A stretch of DNA of 42,643 nt from an uncultured Syntrophomonadaceae bacterium (GTDB taxonomy: Bacteria; Bacillota; Dethiobacteria; PWVN01). The stretch covers positions 1 to 42,643 of the forward strand of contig CAZIRG010000001.1 of NCBI GenBank assembly GCA_964541505.1, read 5' to 3'. Under the pieces are notes generated by a model that saw only the letters and a list, made by a program, of their open reading frames with translations, did not search any database and was not told where the DNA came from. The position numbers and the translations under genes were made by a program. This document shows positions 1-22,262 of this stretch, piece after piece (the first letter of the stretch is position 1; each line of letters opens with the position of its first letter).

Positions 1-53
1 AGAGCAACGCATGAGATAATTTTAAAAACAGCTCAATAGACCTGAGTAGTTAC
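1..53 (+). mobile_element. Right-hand end of a MITE-like element (family A), cut by the window edge. It ends in the terminal inverted repeat CTGAGTAGTTAC at 42-53.
   Basis: It is 52/53 identical to 22210-22262 and 52/53 identical to the reverse complement of 11413-11465. Confidence 0.75.
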
Positions 54-4220: not shown

Positions 4221-4313
4221 CGATACATATCAGAAAATCCTTCTTTTAATTAAGACCCAAGCAGGAAAATCACTACTCCTTCTTGAATCTTAAACTATCC
4301 GGAGGTGAGATTT

Positions 4314-4586
4314 GTGAGTTTGGAGTTAAAAAATTTAATGGAAGAGGTCGTTACGAGTACTTTGCCAGAAGTTTGGAAAAATATAGACATGTGCAAATGT
4401 GAAAAATGCCGCCTTGATATCATAGCTATAAGTCTTAATCATCTTCCTCCTCGTTATATCGTTTCACAACGAGGCGAAGTTTACTCTCGTACTGATTTTT
4501 TGGTACTGCAAAAGCGTGTTGATATCATGACAGCCGTTTCTAATGCCATCCACATCGTAAAAAAGAACCCCCATCATAAAGAATAA
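4314..4586 (+). CDS. ComFB-family protein (late competence development protein ComFB fold)
   Basis: It has the Cys cluster CKCEKCRLD and the LPPRY block typical of the ComFB family. GTG 4314 lies 8 nt after GGAGG (4301-4305), and the ORF-track start at 4305 is in the same frame. Confidence 0.7.
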   Translation: MSLELKNLMEEVVTSTLPEVWKNIDMCKCEKCRLDIIAISLNHLPPRYIVSQRGEVYSRTDFLVLQKRVDIMTAVSNAIHIVKKNPHHKE

Positions 4587-4633
4587 GATAAGTTTTCAGC
4601 TATGTGAAACCAGGCACACCTCTCTTTGTCAAA

Positions 4634-4659
4634 AGAGAGATACACTAGAGAGATACACT
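4634..4659 (+). repeat. Perfect tandem 13-mer AGAGAGATACACT x2, immediately after an 8-bp-stem hairpin (about 4619-4641)
   Basis: Read directly from the sequence. It lies about 50 nt upstream of the antitoxin start, so it could be an operator or terminator region. Confidence 0.6.
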
Positions 4660-4711
4660 CCCTCTTAAAAAATAGGTGTACCCTAATATCGAAACCAGGA
4701 GAAGATTACTA

Positions 4712-4945
4712 TTGGAAATAAGAAAAATTTTTCGTACTGGTAATAGTCAAGTAATTTCAATTCCCAAAGAAATGTTAAAAAAATTAAATCTGCATGAAGG
4801 CGATCAGGTAGTTTTAGAATTAAAAGATAAAACTATTAACATCTCTCTTCTAGCAGAAAAGTTGTCACAAAAGGACGGTTTTTCACAACAAATAGAAAGT
4901 TTTCTGAAACAATACGAGGAGGTTTTAGAAAAACTAGAAGAATGA
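4712..4945 (+). CDS. AbrB/MazE/SpoVT-type antitoxin
   Basis: GNSQVISIPKEMLKKLNLHEGDQVVLEL is a looped-hinge-helix (SpoVT_AbrB) signature. TTG 4712 lies 9 nt after AGGAGA, and the ORF-track start at 4676 is in the same frame. Its stop overlaps the doc start in an ATGA at 4942-4945. Confidence 0.75.
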   Translation: MEIRKIFRTGNSQVISIPKEMLKKLNLHEGDQVVLELKDKTINISLLAEKLSQKDGFSQQIESFLKQYEEVLEKLEE

Positions 4946-5328
4946 AAGAATTAAACGCAAAGGAAATTCTCTACATTCACTATATTCTAACTCAGAAAAA
5001 AGGACTACCTACGGGTTTAAGAGATATAAAGATGCTAAAAGCAGCTATTTTAAGACCCCACTCCAAGTTCCGCAATAAAGAGCTCTACCCAGATATTTAT
5101 GCTAAAGCTGCGGCTTTGACGCAATTTATAATCTGCGGGCGGCCTTTTAATTCCGCTAATACAGCTACCGGGATAACCATAGGTATTATGCTATTGCAGA
5201 AAAATAATCTTTTGCTGCAAACAACAAAAGAGGAAATGCTGGAAACTGCCAGAAAAATTGCCAATAATAACTTAAATGTAGAGGAATTGGGTCATTGGTT
5301 TAAAAATAATTGCCATAAAGTTTTATAA
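4942..5328 (+). CDS. Doc/Fic-family toxin homologue with a degenerate Fic motif
   Basis: It aligns along its length with phage P1 Doc. P1 GHIFNDANKRTA corresponds here to GRPFNSANTATG, so the catalytic His is Arg and the Lys-Arg pair is Thr-Ala. Confidence 0.75.
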   Translation: MKELNAKEILYIHYILTQKKGLPTGLRDIKMLKAAILRPHSKFRNKELYPDIYAKAAALTQFIICGRPFNSANTATGITIGIMLLQKNNLLLQTTKEEMLETARKIANNNLNVEELGHWFKNNCHKVL

Positions 5329-5784: not shown

Positions 5785-5897
5785 AAATCTGCCTCCTCTT
5801 TTTGCTGGTTTTATCTGTTTACATCTTACCATTCTTTCTTTTTAATAGCAATAACAAAAACTCTAAAAAAACTAACTAAACGAGGTGGACCTCTAGC

Positions 5898-7058
5898 ATG
5901 CAAACTATGTACGAAAAAGGCTTAAAGTTTATGAAATACAGTAAAAAAAGAAATCTCTCACAGATTCTCTTTTTATTTATAGCCCTACTTTTTTTTCTCG
6001 CCTACAGGGGAGTAACCAGAGAATATCAAAGGCTAAATCCCATACAAAAAACAGCACAATTATACAATGATATTAATGCAGATGATTTAGTAATCACCAT
6101 AGGAGGAAATTTTAATCCTCGCACCTCTTGGTCCTTTTCTTTATTCTCTCATAACCTTTCTAATGCCCCTCTTTTCTGCCCACATATCACTGAAATCCTG
6201 CTTGCTTCTGATTTGAGGATTCTCTCATTAGCATCTCCCTTTATTTCCGAAAACCTTGTTCCTCTTGATAAATCTCTGGCACTGGGAATATCCTCAAAAA
6301 AAGCTTATTTACTGCAAGAAAATAATATTGATCTGGTGCAAATTTCCGGTAATAATATTTTAGATTTCGGTGTTCTTGGTTTGATTAATACCCTAACTCT
6401 GCTAGATGAGAAAAAAATAGCCGTAACCGGCGCCGGTCTAAACAAAAACGAAGCACTTACACCCTACTATTTTCACAACCCAAACCTTACCCTGGGAATC
6501 GTAAGCCTAAATGCTAACCCTCCTTCTGGTTGGGCAGCAGGAGAAAATCGCTTAGGTGTAGCTACTGCTGACAATGAAACAATTAAAAAACTCTTCTCGG
6601 AAATAAATGAAAAAGCAAATACTGTTTTAGCTTTAGTTTCCTTTGAAGATAGCAACAGTCCCCGTCCTACAAAAACTCAAAGAAATTTTGCTCATGCCCT
6701 GATAAATGCAGGTGCACATATTGTAATCGGTACAGGAGGAAACCTTGTGCAAGAAACAGAATTATATCAGCAAGGTATTATTTTTTATAACCTGGGCAAT
6801 ATCACTCCCTCGCAGGTAAGATTTAGTTATGCTAAAGAATCTATTTTATTGCAAATAATTCTTTCCCCTAGCGGGCAAAAGAGGTTTATTGCTTATCCCC
6901 TTTCCCTTGAAAGTGCCAATACTGAAATGCTCTTTTCAGGAGTACCAGAAAATATTATAAACCAGAAAATATTATGGAGACTACAAGGAGAAGCTCCCTG
7001 GCAAAGAAAAAATAATTTTTATTTCCTTGAATTACCATTTTCTCGCTTGCATTATTAA
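5898..7058 (+). CDS. capA: CapA/PgsA-family (PGA_cap) membrane protein lacking the conserved His residues
   Basis: It has an N-terminal TM helix and is collinear with B. subtilis PgsA (blocks GAGLNKNEA and FYNLGNI). However, GDIMMGR reads GGNFNPR, NNH reads NNI, HWG reads FED and GHHPHV reads GTGGNL. The SD GAGGTGG lies 9 nt before the ATG. Confidence 0.75.
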   Translation: MQTMYEKGLKFMKYSKKRNLSQILFLFIALLFFLAYRGVTREYQRLNPIQKTAQLYNDINADDLVITIGGNFNPRTSWSFSLFSHNLSNAPLFCPHITEILLASDLRILSLASPFISENLVPLDKSLALGISSKKAYLLQENNIDLVQISGNNILDFGVLGLINTLTLLDEKKIAVTGAGLNKNEALTPYYFHNPNLTLGIVSLNANPPSGWAAGENRLGVATADNETIKKLFSEINEKANTVLALVSFEDSNSPRPTKTQRNFAHALINAGAHIVIGTGGNLVQETELYQQGIIFYNLGNITPSQVRFSYAKESILLQIILSPSGQKRFIAYPLSLESANTEMLFSGVPENIINQKILWRLQGEAPWQRKNNFYFLELPFSRLHY

Positions 7059-7078
7059 CTTTCAGGTGGTGAAAAATT

Positions 7079-8296
7079 GTGTCCCTTTTACCTCTACTCC
7101 CAGGCGCCCTTGCCTTGGGACTGGGTCTTGGGCTGGGATTACGAGAAAAGCATCTTATCTCACGCAATTTAGACAGCTTTAAATACAGAGTAAATGTCAC
7201 TGGAACAAGAGGTAAATCTACGGTAGTTCGCCTGCTAACAGCTGCTTTTCTCGAAAGCAAAATCCCAGTTGTCGCTAAAACTACCGGCAGTGAAGCTCGT
7301 ATATTAACTTTTCTGTCAGATAAAAAGAAAAACCTTTATCCTCTGGAATACGAATTTGAACGTCCCTTAGAAGGACCCAATATAAAAGAACTACGTTCGC
7401 TTATAAGTAAGGCTAAATCCGTCAAAGCCACTACTCTGGTTGTTGAAGATATGACCATCGACTCTGATTACCGTGATATTTTTTCTCGTGAATTTTTAAA
7501 GACCAATGTCATTATTATTACTAATGTTTTAAAAGATCATATGGAGGTTTTAGGACCTTCTTTAGACGATGTAGCAGAAGCTTACGGTGCCATTATTCCG
7601 GAAAAAGGGCTGCTAATAACTACTCCAGGTAAATACCTGCCTTATTTTAAAAAGATAGCTGCATATAAAAAAACAAGTGTTGTTGTTTCCCAGGAAACAG
7701 AATTACCTCCTAACTACACTGAAAAGTTTTCCTACCTCTTATTCCCTGAAACTCTATCTTTAGTTTTGCAGGCAGCTCTTTCTCTGGGAATAAGCAAGAA
7801 AACAGCTTTAAAAGGCATGCTTAAAGCTGCTCCTGACCCTGGCGCTTTGCAAGTAAAACAAATTATAGTTAGTAATGGCACTGTTTCTGACGAGAAAGGA
7901 CTACTGGTCAAGGCTTTCGCTGCCAACGACCCCACCTCTGCCTTGCTGGTATGGACATATTTTCAAAATAGCGGTTACCTAAATAAGCAAACTATTGTCT
8001 TGATGAATTGTCGTCAAGATCGGGTAAAGCGAAGTGAAGATTTTGCTCGCTTGGTATTGCCAAAAATGTCAGGGCAAAGCCTGCTGGTTATGGGAGAAAT
8101 AACCAAGCCAGTTCTCGCATTAAAAAACCGTTTTGCTTTTGCCGAGGTTTTAAACCTAGAAGGAGTTTCTGCAAAAAAAATAGCCCAACTAATAAAAGAA
8201 AAGTACTGCCTCAATAATATCTTGTTTGGGACAGGAAATTATTATGGAGTAGCGAAAGAATTATGTCTAGAACTTGAAAAAACAGGGGGTAACTAA
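7079..8296 (+). CDS. capB: Poly-gamma-glutamate synthase CapB/PgsB (Mur-ligase-like amide ligase)
   Basis: It has the P-loop NVTGTRGKST, a length of 405 aa and a position directly before capC. The start is GTG with the SD AGGTGG. Confidence 0.88.
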   Translation: MSLLPLLPGALALGLGLGLGLREKHLISRNLDSFKYRVNVTGTRGKSTVVRLLTAAFLESKIPVVAKTTGSEARILTFLSDKKKNLYPLEYEFERPLEGPNIKELRSLISKAKSVKATTLVVEDMTIDSDYRDIFSREFLKTNVIIITNVLKDHMEVLGPSLDDVAEAYGAIIPEKGLLITTPGKYLPYFKKIAAYKKTSVVVSQETELPPNYTEKFSYLLFPETLSLVLQAALSLGISKKTALKGMLKAAPDPGALQVKQIIVSNGTVSDEKGLLVKAFAANDPTSALLVWTYFQNSGYLNKQTIVLMNCRQDRVKRSEDFARLVLPKMSGQSLLVMGEITKPVLALKNRFAFAEVLNLEGVSAKKIAQLIKEKYCLNNILFGTGNYYGVAKELCLELEKTGGN

Positions 8297-8746
8297 ATGT
8301 ACGGTGGAGAGTTGCTGGTAGCTCTAGTAGTAGGGATAACTTTAAGTATTATTTTTGCTGATCTTTTTGGTATTATTCCTGCCGGTATCATTGTGCCGCC
8401 TTATTTAGCACTGGTTTTTGACCAGCCTACTATTTTAGCCAGTATTTCTCTGCTTTCTTTATTGTCCTTTTTTTTAGTTAAATTTCTAGCTCGCTTTATT
8501 ATTCTCTATGGGAGGCGTAAATTCGGAGCAATGATTCTGGCTGCTTTACTCCTGAATTTGCTCCTGCATTTTCTTTTCCCTCTCCTAGCATCTAATATTT
8601 TTCCTTTACAAGGAGTTGGCATTATTATTCCCGGTCTTATTGCCAACAGTATTGACCGGCAAGGAATAGCTCCAACTTTTTTGAGCATGCTTTTTCTGGG
8701 AGGAGTTACTTATCTGGCACTTCTTCTTTATCTTTTTCTGCTGTAA
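8297..8746 (+). CDS. capC: Poly-gamma-glutamate synthase membrane subunit CapC/PgsC
   Basis: It is a 149-aa polytopic membrane protein, the same length as B. subtilis PgsC, and its start abuts the capB stop. Confidence 0.85.
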   Translation: MYGGELLVALVVGITLSIIFADLFGIIPAGIIVPPYLALVFDQPTILASISLLSLLSFFLVKFLARFIILYGRRKFGAMILAALLLNLLLHFLFPLLASNIFPLQGVGIIIPGLIANSIDRQGIAPTFLSMLFLGGVTYLALLLYLFLL

Positions 8747-8753
8747 CCCCCCA

Positions 8754-8771
8754 AAGGGGACTTTTCCCCTT
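8754..8771 (+). other. Hairpin AAGGGGA-CTTT-TCCCCTT between capC and the capA-like/GGT fusion gene, with no U-tract
   Basis: A 7-bp perfect stem with a 4-nt loop, read directly from the sequence. The same AAGGGGA/TCCCCTT arms recur at 38896-38938. Confidence 0.5.
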
Positions 8772-8828
8772 CTCTCTGAAAAGAGCTTAGGAAGGGTCAT
8801 TTTTTAAGAAAACACTGGGGGTGTAGAG

Positions 8829-11390
8829 TTGAAATTTTTTAAAATATGTCTTGTTGTAATTTTCATGTGTTTAACAGCAACAACCCTTTTCTACTTTTTT
8901 TATATTTCACACCATACACACAACCAATTAGAAATTACAGATAAACCACTAGTTCAAGCAGTTATCTTCGGCAAAATCTCCAGAAATGATACCCTTATAA
9001 CTCGTTGGCTAAAAAATTCTAATTTCTCAACTTTATCCCAACTACCTTCTATTAGCAAAGAAATAGTTTCATTAGCTCATTATGAAAACTCTTTTCCTTC
9101 TGCCCGAGAAACAAAAATTTTACAAAAAACAGGACTTTCACTTGTTACTCTTCCTTTTATACCCTTTGAAGATCTACCATATATAGTTGAAGAAAAAATC
9201 ACTGACAAAGTCGAGTTGCAAAGAGATTTAGCAGTTTTGACTTTATGCAAAAAAGAAAACACCCTCCTTTTAAATCTTCCTTTGGACATTTCTTTACAAG
9301 AACTAATAGAAACTATAGCTACCTACAAAGAAACAGCAACACCTCAACTTTTAATCATAAAATTCACTCCCACCGCTCAAACCGACAACGAGAACGAAGA
9401 AAATATTTTTTCCACTAAAGCAAAAGCAGCTGCGGAAGCAGGTGCTCATATAATTATAGGAACCCATACGGCAAACTTGCTACCGCTGGAAGTATATGCA
9501 GATAGCTTGATTATCCCTAGTCTTGACTTTTCCCTAGGAGGAAATAACACTGAAAGTGCTTTTATTCTTTTTACTCTTTATGAAAAAGGCATCACTGTAG
9601 AAGTTCACCCTCTCCGCCTTGCAAACGGACTCCCTCAATCTCTGCATTTACCTTGGCACTATTTTCAAAGCAAACAAATTTTGCAACAAATAGCACCGGC
9701 AAAAGAAGGCTTTCAACCAAAAAGATTTAAATCTGTCTATATTTCCTCCTCCCTTCTACCCCTGCCCGAACCTGTAGAACTAACGGAACCTCTCCTCGAC
9801 CCCATAGAAACACCTCTGGAGAGTGAAAAAAAGCAGGCAGAAAACAACGAAGGAAGATTTGGCGTAGCCGCGGGACATCCTTTGGCTGTAGAAGTAGGAA
9901 TGGAAATACTTCGTGCCGGGGGAAATGCCATAGATGCAGCTGTTGCTGTTTCCTACGCCTTAGCGGTAGTTGAACCGCATGCGTCAGGTTTGGGTGGCGG
10001 TGGCATAATGCTCTTACATCTGGCAGCAGAAAATAAACAAATAGTTATCGATTACCGCGAAACCGCTCCTTTCACTATGGAGCAAGATGAAATCGGAAAA
10101 ATAATGAACTGGCCCAGCACTGGTATTCCGGGTTTTGTAAGAGGCATGGAAAAAGCTTTGGAAAAACATGGCACTATGTCACGTCAGGATGTTTTAACCC
10201 CTGCCCTAAATTTAGCCCGGGATGGTTTTCCTATGTCTGCAGAACTGCATACTAGGGTCAGGCAAAATTCCGGCAAGTTGGCTCGTAGCCAAGAAGCACT
10301 AACTAATTTTTTTCGACGAGGCTGGGCTACTCCTGTAGGTGAAATCATAAAACAACCTGTTTTAGCTCGCACTTTAGAAGCTATTATAAAGGAAGGAAGT
10401 AAAGTTTTCTATGAAGGATATATTGCTGATAGTATTATAAAAGTACTAGCACAGCAAGGAATGCATCTCTCTGCTAACGATTTGGCCAGATACCGGGCTA
10501 TACTTAGAGAGCCTATACAAGGAAATTATCGTGGCTATACTGTACTTACCGTCCCTCCTCCTACCGGCGGCTTCAACCTTTTACAGCAACTAAAAATTTT
10601 GGAGCATTATGACCTAGGAACTTATCAGCAACCAACACCGGAGATATACCATCTTATCCAACAAACAATAAGAGCTGTTTACAGCGACCGCCTCAGTCAT
10701 GTAGGTGATCCTAGATTTGTTTATGTACCCCTAGAGGAACTGCTAAGCGAAGAACATATCCTAGGGAAAATAGACCTAATTGAAAGTGGCGATATACCTA
10801 TGCCCATGTACAGAGATCCTTATCGTCCCTCTGATAACACTACCCATATAGTAGTCCTAGATTCTGCAGGAAACTGGGTCAGTGTAACCAATACTATCAG
10901 CTTTTTCTTTGGTTATGGTCTGCAGGCAGAAGGTTTTTTCCTAAATACCCAACTCAAAAATTTTAGTTCCAACCCCCGTTCCCCCAATTCGTTTCAACCG
11001 GGGAAAAGACCTTTCAGCCATATCAGCCCTACCTTGCTTTTCAAAGATGGTACACCCTTTATGGCACTAGGCACTCCCGGAGGCAGGCGTATTCCTGCTT
11101 ATTTAGCTCAAGTAATAGTGCAATATGTAGATTTTGATGCCAACATTGAGGAAGCCGTAGCAGCTCCTCGCTTCTGGCCAGAAGGCAGAAAACTTTATCT
11201 GGAAAAAGGAATTCCAGATAGAGCCATCTCGTTTTTACTGGAACAAGGTTACCAAATAATAAAACGCAATCCTTCTTTTTTCTTTGGCAGAATCGCTGCT
11301 CTTCATCTGGATTTAGAAACCAACAAACTCACTGGTACAGGTGACCCTCTACGCGGCGAGGGAACCACTTCCCTTGTAGGTGAGCGGTGA
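8829..11390 (+). CDS. Fusion protein with an N-terminal TM helix, a degenerate CapA-like domain, a Pro/Glu-rich linker and a gamma-glutamyltranspeptidase (CapD/GGT) domain
   Basis: The N-terminal part contains AGAHIIIGTHTANLLPLEVY...SLDFSLGGN, which matches the CapA block GADIIVGHHPHVLEPIEVY...SLGNF with the histidines lost. From about 9855 the GGT blocks appear: GHPLAVEVGMEILRAGGNAIDAAVAV, the autoprocessing and nucleophile site DNTTHIVVLD, and GTPGGRRI. Confidence 0.85.
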   Translation: MKFFKICLVVIFMCLTATTLFYFFYISHHTHNQLEITDKPLVQAVIFGKISRNDTLITRWLKNSNFSTLSQLPSISKEIVSLAHYENSFPSARETKILQKTGLSLVTLPFIPFEDLPYIVEEKITDKVELQRDLAVLTLCKKENTLLLNLPLDISLQELIETIATYKETATPQLLIIKFTPTAQTDNENEENIFSTKAKAAAEAGAHIIIGTHTANLLPLEVYADSLIIPSLDFSLGGNNTESAFILFTLYEKGITVEVHPLRLANGLPQSLHLPWHYFQSKQILQQIAPAKEGFQPKRFKSVYISSSLLPLPEPVELTEPLLDPIETPLESEKKQAENNEGRFGVAAGHPLAVEVGMEILRAGGNAIDAAVAVSYALAVVEPHASGLGGGGIMLLHLAAENKQIVIDYRETAPFTMEQDEIGKIMNWPSTGIPGFVRGMEKALEKHGTMSRQDVLTPALNLARDGFPMSAELHTRVRQNSGKLARSQEALTNFFRRGWATPVGEIIKQPVLARTLEAIIKEGSKVFYEGYIADSIIKVLAQQGMHLSANDLARYRAILREPIQGNYRGYTVLTVPPPTGGFNLLQQLKILEHYDLGTYQQPTPEIYHLIQQTIRAVYSDRLSHVGDPRFVYVPLEELLSEEHILGKIDLIESGDIPMPMYRDPYRPSDNTTHIVVLDSAGNWVSVTNTISFFFGYGLQAEGFFLNTQLKNFSSNPRSPNSFQPGKRPFSHISPTLLFKDGTPFMALGTPGGRRIPAYLAQVIVQYVDFDANIEEAVAAPRFWPEGRKLYLEKGIPDRAISFLLEQGYQIIKRNPSFFFGRIAALHLDLETNKLTGTGDPLRGEGTTSLVGER

Positions 11391-11412: not shown

Positions 11413-11496
11413 GTAACTACTCAGGTCTATTGAGCTGTTTTTAAAATTATCTCATACGTTGCTCTCAAGTTGCTGCAGCAAATACCAAAGAGAGCA
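11413..11496 (-). mobile_element. Truncated family A MITE copy in inverted orientation relative to copies 1-53 and 22117-22262
   Basis: The TIR GTAACTACTCAG is at 11413-11424. The next ~70 nt are near-identical to the reverse complement of 22181-22262, and similarity is lost after AATACCAAAG.GAGCA. Confidence 0.7.
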
Positions 11497-11505
11497 TTGA
11501 TTTTA

Positions 11506-22116: not shown

Positions 22117-22262
22117 GTAACTACTTAGCTAAGCTGCTACAGCAACACCACGTTCGCTGGATTTTATATGTGTATCGGTGCTCACTTTGGTATTTGCTGC
22201 AGCAGCTTGAGAGCAACGCATGAGATAATTTTAAAAACAGCTCTATAGACCTGAGTAGTTAC
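22117..22262 (+). mobile_element. Complete 146-bp MITE (family A) with TIRs and an 8-bp target-site duplication
   Basis: The TIRs are GTAACTACTTAG (22117-22128) and CTGAGTAGTTAC (22251-22262), matching 11/12. The direct repeat CAAAGTTT occurs at 22109-22116 and 22263-22270. An internal inverted repeat pairs 22131-22145 with 22194-22208 (14/15). Confidence 0.85.

Follow-up and report, generated by a model that had tools for sequence, protein, structure and literature searches.

Organisation of the cap locus

We analysed a putative poly-gamma-glutamate (PGA) locus at 5898-11390 of a 42,643-nucleotide metagenome scaffold (ENA ERZ23486814; contig CAZIRG010000001.1) from an uncultured Syntrophomonadaceae bacterium of the class Dethiobacteria; this whole stretch is referred to here as the window. 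The locus consists of four co-directional open reading frames (ORFs) on the forward strand (5898-7058, 7079-8296, 8297-8746 and 8829-11390), all preceded by a GGAGG-type ribosome-binding site (RBS) and separated by gaps of 20 nt, 0 nt and 82 nt, respectively. An earlier note on this DNA, made from the nucleotide letters alone, had read them as a CapA homologue, capB, capC and a CapA-like module joined to a gamma-glutamyltranspeptidase (GGT). Its ORFs match ours exactly and the profile searches agree with this content; the anatomy and homologies described below are very likely correct.

The first gene, capA* (ORF1, 386 aa, 5898-7058), encodes a membrane-anchored CapA/PgsA-family protein with an extracytoplasmic PGA_cap domain (PF09587, 116 bits against a cut-off of 27). 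The second, capB/pgsB (ORF2, 405 aa, 7079-8296), encodes a Mur-ligase-family protein (PF08245) with an N-terminal membrane segment, which matched the PgsB equivalog model TIGR04012 with 328 bits (cut-off 222.7) over positions 12-377 of 380. The profile match identifies it as an ATP-dependent gamma-glutamyl amide ligase, and the P-loop GTRGKST is present in the translation. The third, capC/pgsC (ORF3, 149 aa, 8297-8746), encodes a polytopic membrane subunit with several hydrophobic segments that matched both the PgsC model TIGR04011 (124 bits, cut-off 96) and PF14102 (114 bits). The synthetase core is therefore intact, as the earlier note had supposed, with both CapB and CapC above their cut-offs.

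The fourth gene (ORF4, 853 aa, 8829-11390) encodes a single polypeptide in which a membrane anchor is followed by a degraded CapA-fold domain, then by a disordered linker and finally by a GGT domain. Its short N-terminus and single transmembrane (TM) anchor (aa 1-30, 8829-8918) were recognised by hydropathy, by a helix at residues 2-31 of the AlphaFold2 model and by N-terminal alignment. They are followed by the CapA-fold, calcineurin-like domain, here called CapA' (aa ~31-305, 8919-9743), a Pro/Glu-rich linker (aa 306-345, 9744-9863), the large-subunit part of the GGT (aa 346-670, 9864-10838) and its small-subunit part with the stop codon (aa 671-853, 10839-11390). A full-length CapA (ORF1) thus stands ahead of capB, and at the canonical position after capC a CapA module occurs only inside the fusion.

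Hydropathy gave one N-terminal hydrophobic helix each in ORF1, ORF2 and ORF4. The topology of B. subtilis PgsBCA has been mapped with PhoA, placing PgsB in the cytoplasm and most of PgsA outside, and the single N-terminal TM helices of ORF1 and ORF4 agree with this extracytoplasmic position of PgsA (PMC7490850).

We also looked for a capE/pgsE gene, taken as a small TM ORF of about 45-90 aa downstream of capA/capD. As the earlier note had reported, none was found: the gaps hold no forward-strand ORF of 20 aa or more, and none of that length reaches across the 3' end of ORF4. A 25-aa hydrophobic ORF just upstream of ORF1 (5802-5879, +) was weighed as a capE-like peptide but dismissed, since it starts with TTG, lacks an RBS and overlaps the beginning of the divergent CBS-domain gene. 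Its sequence is largely conserved in the related locus L003 (nucleotides ~85-90% identical); there the in-frame TTG has become CTG and the frame runs past the stop of the window, leaving no equivalent ORF, and 5802-5879 is probably not a gene.

The upstream CapA protein lacks the catalytic residues

By hydropathy, ORF1 begins with a Lys-rich cytoplasmic tail, followed by one TM helix (aa 18-41, nt 5949-6020) and the extracytoplasmic PGA_cap domain. Its best structure match by sequence is MslH (8ITH, E 1.4e-12), a lasso-peptide C-terminal epimerase (8GQ9, 8ITG, 8ITH) and the only solved CapA-family protein. Structures and mutagenesis of MslH define two dyads, His88/Asp91 and His295/Asp11, and the Ca ligands Glu44, Asn87, His259 and His261; D11, H88, D91 and H295 are each required, and all single mutants tested were inactive (PMC10406935).

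We aligned ORF1 to these positions. MslH D11/E44/N87/H88/D91/H259/H295 correspond to N71/A112/N152/N153/D156/S248/N282 of ORF1, so that only the equivalents of Asn87 and Asp91 (N152 and D156) are kept. The Asn at the MslH His295 position is the same change as in the inactive MslH mutant H295N. Canonical CapA proteins carry the blocks GD, GNFE, NNH..D, HWGxE and GHHPH, as seen for example in P0005 and in the CapA of locus L010; in ORF1 the sequence GTGGN stands at the GHHPH block. The tail motif F11, K13 and K16, which is invariant across ORF1-type and canonical CapA proteins, is retained in ORF1.

A separate observation concerns another locus, L009, in which a 39-aa ORF (6745-6864, minus strand; MLKWGLGLVKESRKHNNLHLAVLWAVLVLLILLLETAGH) lies directly upstream of capB. 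Its product is 37-44% identical to ORF1-type CapA proteins over their cytoplasmic tail and TM helix. No CapA ectodomain is encoded in L009, and a short CapD-type GGT is transcribed divergently. As a lead from this single metagenomic contig, the part that CapA cannot do without may be its tail and TM helix.

The N-terminal third of ORF4 is a degraded CapA homologue

Direct sequence searches with the N-terminal module of ORF4 were weak or null. CapA' alone scored 16.3 bits (E 0.007) against PGA_cap, below the Pfam cut-off of 27, and BLASTP of ORF1 against the ORF4 N-domain gave no significant match, the best high-scoring segment pair (E 0.19) falling on the GHHPH-equivalent block. With phmmer, the ORF4 N-domain had zero matches in the PDB; a hidden Markov model (HMM) of the CapA' family gave a marginal match to MslH (E 0.1) amid noise. 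A word-indexed protein search returned one partial protein. Of 1.84 billion representative proteins searched exhaustively with phmmer, five matched, three of which belong to the same family; the other two, P0004 and P0005 (E 3e-4 and 9e-4), are genuine PGA_cap proteins with 96 and 234 bits on PF09587.

Because of these weak results, the homology was settled by profile-profile comparison and by fold. Aligned with hhalign, the CapA' family matched the CapA profile with 98.5% probability (E 1.8e-15, 237 columns), and in global mode with 99.4% (E 4.9e-21, 290 columns). Two relatives of CapA' exceed the Pfam PGA_cap cut-off by themselves (P0017, 33.2 bits; P0014, 30.2 bits). The AlphaFold model of ORF4 aa 1-343 had a predicted local distance difference test (pLDDT) score of 80 and a predicted template modelling (pTM) score of 0.76. 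A Foldseek search with the CapA' model placed four MslH structures on top (best E 3.6e-8, about 4e-8; probability 1.0), followed by other calcineurin-like phosphoesterases. Sequence profiles and the predicted fold thus identify the N-terminal third of ORF4 as a CapA homologue. The earlier note had made its reading depend on profile evidence for both N-terminal regions: ORF1 is clear, and for ORF4 the single-sequence Pfam score is weak, below the cut-off, and the profile-profile comparison speaks for a CapA domain, together with the MslH fold match and the two relatives above the cut-off.

CapA' has diverged further than ORF1. The NNH loop is missing altogether and GTHTA stands in place of GHHPH, with no His at the aligned positions and no catalytic or metal-binding residue recognisable. 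Some relatives still carry GHHPQ, GHHA or GHHR, which betray the CapA ancestry of the module. According to the N-terminal alignment, the cytoplasmic tail motif of CapA is absent from ORF4. Across 12 family members with identities down to 27%, 23 alignment columns are invariant, and the linker at aa 306-345 varies in both length and sequence, with pLDDT below 50 in both models.

The residue set of an MslH-type epimerase or metallophosphatase was found in neither ORF1 nor CapA'. The loss of the His-rich blocks noticed in the first reading of the DNA is therefore borne out in both modules by alignment to the MslH positions, and by these residues both are predicted to be catalytically dead pseudo-enzymes.

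The transpeptidase domain of ORF4 is CapD type

The GGT domain (aa 359-842) matched PF01019 with 430 bits and the g_glut_trans equivalog TIGR00066 with 415 bits (cut-off 358). Matches of the large-subunit part in the PDB were Bacillus GGT and the CapD large chain. Thr671, in the sequence RPSDN-TTH, is the predicted autoprocessing nucleophile; in alignments it falls on the first residue of the mature small chain in CapD, Bacillus GGT and E. coli GGT. The small-subunit part, which also carries the motif GGRRIP, has B. anthracis CapD as its best PDB match (3G9K_S, 112 bits, against about 101 for Bacillus GGTs). The GGT domain and B. cereus CapD share 36% identity.

In B. subtilis GGT (BsGGT), Glu423, Glu442 and Asp445 hold the free alpha-amino group of the donor. 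The BsGGT mutation D445N cuts activity by 90% and raises cephalosporin-acylase activity 55-fold, this second activity being higher still in the triple mutant E423Y/E442Q/D445N, and the equivalent E. coli mutation, D433N, abolishes transpeptidation (PMC8062742). At these three positions ORF4 has S691, Q708 and N711. The same S/Q/N triad occurs in B. cereus CapD (P0125) and in 15 of the 15 closest relatives of ORF4, fused and short alike. Typical GGTs have N/E/D or E/E/D, and E/D is retained at the triad in 53 of 120 homologues. The lid loop is also missing from ORF4, as it is from CapD: the 10-residue insert PNxYGLVGGx of proteobacterial GGTs is absent. Absence of the lid loop leaves the pocket open, and Bacillus GGTs without it hydrolyse PGA (PMC8062742). 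From these signatures we assign the ORF4 domain to the CapD type (MEROPS T03). Since no free alpha-amino group would be needed, the enzyme could act on internal gamma-glutamyl residues, as CapD does.

Three homologues of ORF4 from outside the window (P0051, P0054 and P0061; 932-947 aa) belong to the GGT family and have ~330 extra residues inserted within the GGT domain. This inserted part has a weak match resembling a 3-keto-disaccharide hydrolase, and the triad reads S/E/N. They represent a different, unrelated GGT domain architecture.

Conservation of the operon in Dethiobacteria and origin of the fusion

The neighbourhoods of relatives were taken from exact-protein look-ups; a CapB scan of genome contigs gave one locus. 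The closest relatives of the window belong to Ca. Contubernalis and Dethiobacter, within the class Dethiobacteria. The same four-gene order, with capA first and the CapA-GGT fusion last, recurs in L003 (a metagenome-assembled genome (MAG), with a CapB 88% identical to that of the window), in L004, in L006/L007 (a Dethiobacter MAG) and in L008, and partly in L002. L004 is the 3.56-Mb chromosome record of Ca. Contubernalis alkaliaceticus, in which the operon lies behind ComFB-MazE-Fic. A search with full-length ORF4 gave fusion proteins of 821-853 aa in about 11 clusters at 90% identity, spanning Dethiobacter and Contubernalis, and the CapD-type enzyme is linked to capB/capC in every relative examined. 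Database labels of these proteins are generic ("CapA family protein", "gamma-glutamyltransferase").

We calculated dN/dS (omega) from one sequence pair, the window and L003, and the values are rough: 0.25 for ORF1, 0.14 for capB and 0.085 for capC, and within ORF4 0.36 for CapA', 1.2 for the linker and 0.12 for the GGT (aa 346-853). In this pair ORF1 and CapA' are both under purifying selection.

The nearest outgroup of the CapD-type protein is P0024 (40% identity), which shares the S/Q/N triad and GGRRIP and is encoded on a JGI metagenome contig (L010). The operon there runs capB-capC-capA-capD-ywtC, with capA and capD as separate genes that overlap by 11 nt. Its CapA is fully canonical (GD, GNFE, NNH, HWGQE, GHHPH), the pgsE/ywtC gene is present (PF26359, YwtC), and there is no upstream capA. 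Given this overlap, a single small mutation could be enough to join the two genes. CapA' of the window occupies the place of a canonical capA, behind capC and immediately in front of the CapD domain. With the HMM of the CapA' family, canonical CapA proteins scored 68, 54 and 44 bits against 19-32 bits for the co-resident ORF1 family, which argues that CapA' is not a recent copy of ORF1.

The simplest reading of these sequences has three steps. A canonical B-C-A-D operon would have come first, and its A and D genes would then have fused. A second capA lineage of the ORF1 type would have been placed upstream and have taken over or kept the CapA role, and the fused copy would have decayed. The architecture that the earlier note called non-canonical would thus be so in part: capB-capC-capA-capD is the canonical order once the fusion is read as capA::capD, and it is the upstream capA that stands out of order. 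No description of a CapA-CapD fusion architecture was found in the literature searched, and we therefore did not recognise it as an already characterised pgs variant.

Comparison with known PGA systems

By its sequence matches, the locus belongs to the known capBCAD/pgsBCA system, with PgsB, PgsC, PGA_cap and CapD-type proteins all present, and a catalytic CapA and a capE both absent. As in the capBCADE operon of B. anthracis plasmid pXO2, there is a CapB ligase, a CapC of 149 aa, a CapA-fold module directly after capC, a CapD-type enzyme and a set of membrane-anchored proteins with extracytoplasmic domains. B. anthracis CapD is a GGT-family transpeptidase that both anchors PGA to peptidoglycan and trims it by depolymerisation (PMC8062742), and ORF4 shares its Thr nucleophile, its S/Q/N triad and its lack of a lid loop. 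Unlike in B. anthracis, capA and capD form one polypeptide with a degraded CapA part, capE is missing, an extra non-catalytic capA paralogue precedes capB, and the locus is chromosomal in an anaerobic class other than that of Bacillus.

The pgsBCAE operon of B. subtilis (ywsC-ywtABC) likewise shares proteins that fit the PgsB and PgsC models and a PgsA-family protein with conserved tail and TM helix. It differs from the window in that capA stands in front here, that the transpeptidase is in the operon and fused (ggt and pgdS are unlinked in B. subtilis), and that pgsE and the PgsA motifs GD/GNFE/NNH/HWGxE/GHHPH are absent. L010 has the same CapD-type enzyme (S/Q/N, GGRRIP) and the same B-C-A-D order; in the window, by contrast, capA and capD are fused, the CapA is non-canonical, pgsE/ywtC is lacking and an upstream capA is present. 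For both CapA modules, MslH is the nearest protein of known structure, and it shares their fold but not their chemistry. What is new relative to these systems is the CapA-CapD fusion, the two pseudo-enzyme CapA modules as predicted from their residues, the extra upstream capA and the host lineage.

Vps29 structures were also found among the fold matches of CapA', at ranks 7-37. Vps29, of the retromer, is a catalytically inactive calcineurin-fold protein and a precedent for a protein-binding scaffold of this fold. It has no detectable sequence relationship to CapA' and works in another cellular context, and the analogy is one of mode of action only.

Proposed mechanism and alternatives

On balance we favour the view that this is a chromosomal, vertically inherited PGA operon of Dethiobacteria with the composition capA*-capB-capC-capA'::capD, working as follows. 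CapB, the cytoplasmic ATP-dependent ligase, and CapC, the membrane subunit, would link glutamate units into a chain and move it through the membrane. ORF1 keeps the tail, the TM helix and the fold without the His/Asp dyads or the metal ligands, and for this reason it would act structurally, as a CapA subunit for assembly or chain exit, rather than as an MslH-type epimerase. ORF4 would be the canonical post-capC capA fused to the adjacent capD. Its CapA' part, non-catalytic and close to the membrane, would together with the flexible ~40-aa tether hold the CapD-type N-terminal-nucleophile transpeptidase at the site of polymer exit. The CapD-type domain would cleave internal gamma-glutamyl bonds of nascent PGA, and the cleaved chain would be transferred to peptidoglycan (anchoring) or hydrolysed (length trimming or release), between which the sequence does not decide.

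CapA has been proposed as an in-chain PGA epimerase (PMC8179263), and B. subtilis pgsBC without pgsA makes 95% L-PGA (PMC6029982). Because neither CapA module should be able to epimerise, an L-rich polymer is predicted, unless D-Glu is supplied as monomer. For both the tethering by CapA' and the L-rich product, we see the chances as evenly divided.

Several points weigh against this interpretation. The epimerase role of CapA for PGA is only a proposal, and in the literature searched we found neither direct proof of PgsA epimerase activity nor a paper on PGA in any Dethiobacteria. The AlphaFold model of full-length ORF4 is of low confidence (pLDDT 61, pTM 0.40, from a 13-sequence alignment) and too poor to inform on how CapA' packs against the GGT domain. 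The omega values come from the single pair named above, and that of CapA' (0.36) is the most relaxed of the folded parts. The whole GGT domain is as similar to Bacillus GGT as to CapD, its best PDB match being B. licheniformis GGT (318 bits); the CapD assignment accordingly rests on the small subunit, the three active-site columns and the operon context. Finally, with gene order and synteny unchanged, P0021 (561 aa, L011) has no CapA' module and P0020 (599 aa, L005) retains no more of it than the first strand and helix. CapA' is therefore not indispensable, and an important tethering role is weakened. The earlier note had suggested an undescribed coupling of polymer synthesis to anchoring or trimming: no description of one was found in the literature searched, and with relatives that have lost the fused module the coupling itself stays conjectural.

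These losses are what would be expected if CapA' were a decaying remnant of the capA-capD fusion without any specific interaction, at most a stalk that raises the CapD domain above the membrane, with ORF1 doing all of the CapA work. The operons that have lost it wholly (P0021) or almost wholly (P0020) are otherwise identical; all catalytic residues, the NNH loop and the conserved CapA cytoplasmic tail are gone; and identity across the family is 27-40% in CapA' against more than 50% over the whole protein, in line with its relaxed omega. That omega is nevertheless well under the neutral 1.2 of the linker in the same protein, the 23 columns stay invariant among 12 members at identities down to 27%, the predicted fold is confident (pLDDT 80), and the module is kept in about 11 clusters from Dethiobacter to Contubernalis. 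We regard a mere remnant as unlikely.

A further alternative concerns the other end of ORF4, which might be an ordinary GGT for salvage of glutathione or gamma-glutamyl peptides, or, like B. subtilis Ggt, an exo-acting enzyme that degrades PGA; in either case it would be no more than a neighbour of the cap genes, feeding on PGA instead of anchoring or sizing it. The equivalog score (415 bits against 358), the B. licheniformis match over the whole domain and the hydrolysis of PGA by lid-loop-less Bacillus GGTs (PMC8062742) are consistent with this. It is improbable, however, when the residues that bind the alpha-amino group are replaced by S/Q/N as in CapD, and when substitutions at these positions cut normal GGT activity (BsGGT D445N, E. 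coli D433N; PMC8062742). Furthermore, the gene is linked to capB/capC in every relative examined, and ORF4 is predicted to be membrane-anchored and not secreted.

If the favoured operon reading is right, the locus bears on the role of CapA/PgsA, which has long been open between transport, complex stabilisation and, more recently, in-chain epimerisation of L-Glu to D-Glu (PMC8179263; PMC6029982). The Dethiobacteria operon is a natural experiment, being conserved and under purifying selection with both CapA folds devoid of the residues that MslH, the only characterised member of the family, needs for catalysis; L009, with its CapA cut down to a 39-aa tail and TM helix, adds to it. If PGA is made by these loci, CapA would have a purely structural function separable from an enzymatic one, and the D/L ratio of the product would be a direct test of the epimerase hypothesis. 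The covalent CapA-CapD fusion is genomic evidence for a physical coupling of synthesis and CapD-type processing, relevant to anthrax-capsule biology and to the engineering of PGA chain length and stereochemistry.

Soda lakes are the habitat from which the described members of the class, Dethiobacter alkaliphilus and Ca. Contubernalis alkaliaceticus, originate. In Bacillus halodurans, an organism that lacks a pgs/cap operon and whose PGA genes are unknown, alkaliphily is associated with wall polymers of short-chain L-PGA (PMC3815933). By analogy, PGA as an acidic wall polymer in these strictly anaerobic bacteria is plausible but speculative. It is a tentative and rather doubtful further step that the CapA fold has twice been turned into a non-catalytic scaffold, with CapA* retained for its tail, TM helix and ectodomain as structural subunit of the synthetase and CapA' docking CapD to the synthase, and that the product is a wall-anchored, all-L gamma-PGA serving alkaliphilic anaerobes as an acidic wall polymer. 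Were this scaffold and docking reading true, the fusion would be natural "Rosetta-stone" evidence for a CapA-CapD complex, and the structural and epimerase roles would be separable.

Genomic context and minor features

Upstream of the cap genes lie genes for isocitrate dehydrogenase, an apurinic/apyrimidinic (AP) endonuclease, a diacylglycerol kinase, ComFB, MazE/Fic and a CBS protein; downstream follow rpe, rsgA, pknB, prpC, fmt, def, priA and coaBC, and further on gmk, ileS and nrdD. The GC content is flat, that of the cap locus equalling that of its flanks. A dispersed intergenic element of ~88 nt (core GTAACTACTCAGGTCTATTGAGCTGTTTTTAAAATTATCTCATGCGTTGCTCTCAAGYTGCTGCAGCAAATACCAAAGWGAGCA) is present in three copies in the 42 kb, at 1-53 (-), 11413-11497 (+) and ~22175-22262 (-), with a nearly identical core. 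The element includes two small hairpins, matches no Rfam family and folds no more stably than shuffled sequence. It might be a REP-like element, a small RNA or a terminator module. Copy 1 lies 5.8 kb upstream of the cap genes, with isocitrate dehydrogenase and other genes intervening.

The earlier note had taken the locus for an accessory segment bracketed by miniature inverted-repeat transposable elements (MITEs), a claim that does not hold: with the third copy at ~22.2 kb the copies do not delimit a cassette, and flat GC, housekeeping flanks and synteny place the locus in the core genome. That it is a mobile capsule island between MITEs with a fundamentally new coupling of synthesis and anchoring is very improbable indeed, for although 1-53 and 11413-11465 form a 53-nt inverted match of 98% and the fusion is uncharacterised and rare (five N-domain matches in 1.84 billion representative proteins), the element is dispersed and intergenic, its copies also enclose the six upstream genes or gene pairs from isocitrate dehydrogenase to the CBS gene, the locus and ComFB/MazE-Fic are syntenic in relatives at only 42-55% protein identity, GC in the window is flat, and the B-C-A-D order is canonical once the fusion is recognised.

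The 82-nt spacer between capC and ORF4 (8747-8828, +) contains a hairpin, GGGGA-CUUU-UCCCC, followed by a CU-rich tract and by the RBS of ORF4. Its minimum free energy of -32.3 kcal/mol (z -1.5) is not significantly better than that of shuffles. One possible role of the hairpin is that of a partial terminator or attenuator, which would adjust how much CapD-type enzyme is made relative to the synthetase. An Rfam scan of the window found no family, and promoter and terminator scans gave no more matches than expected from shuffled sequence.

The cap operon is accompanied by a ComFB-domain gene and a MazE-antitoxin/Fic pair (window, 4305-5328; L004, 9067-9987; L006, 9555-10167; L011, 9125-9734). 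These genes lie on its upstream side both in the window and in Ca. Contubernalis; in the Dethiobacter-like loci they lie downstream and are encoded on the opposite strand. The association is kept though the cap proteins are only 42-55% identical.

In relatives the usual neighbour of the cap operon is a late flagellar cluster, flgM-flgN-flgK-flgL-fliW-csrA (L004, 5044-8750; L005, 6029-9683; L006, 10343-14217; L008, 10287-14138; L011, 9998-13879). In the window, rpe-rsgA-pknB-prpC stands in its place. In B. subtilis the regulation of PGA production is inverse to that of motility, and the linkage of the cap and flagellar genes may be regulatory.

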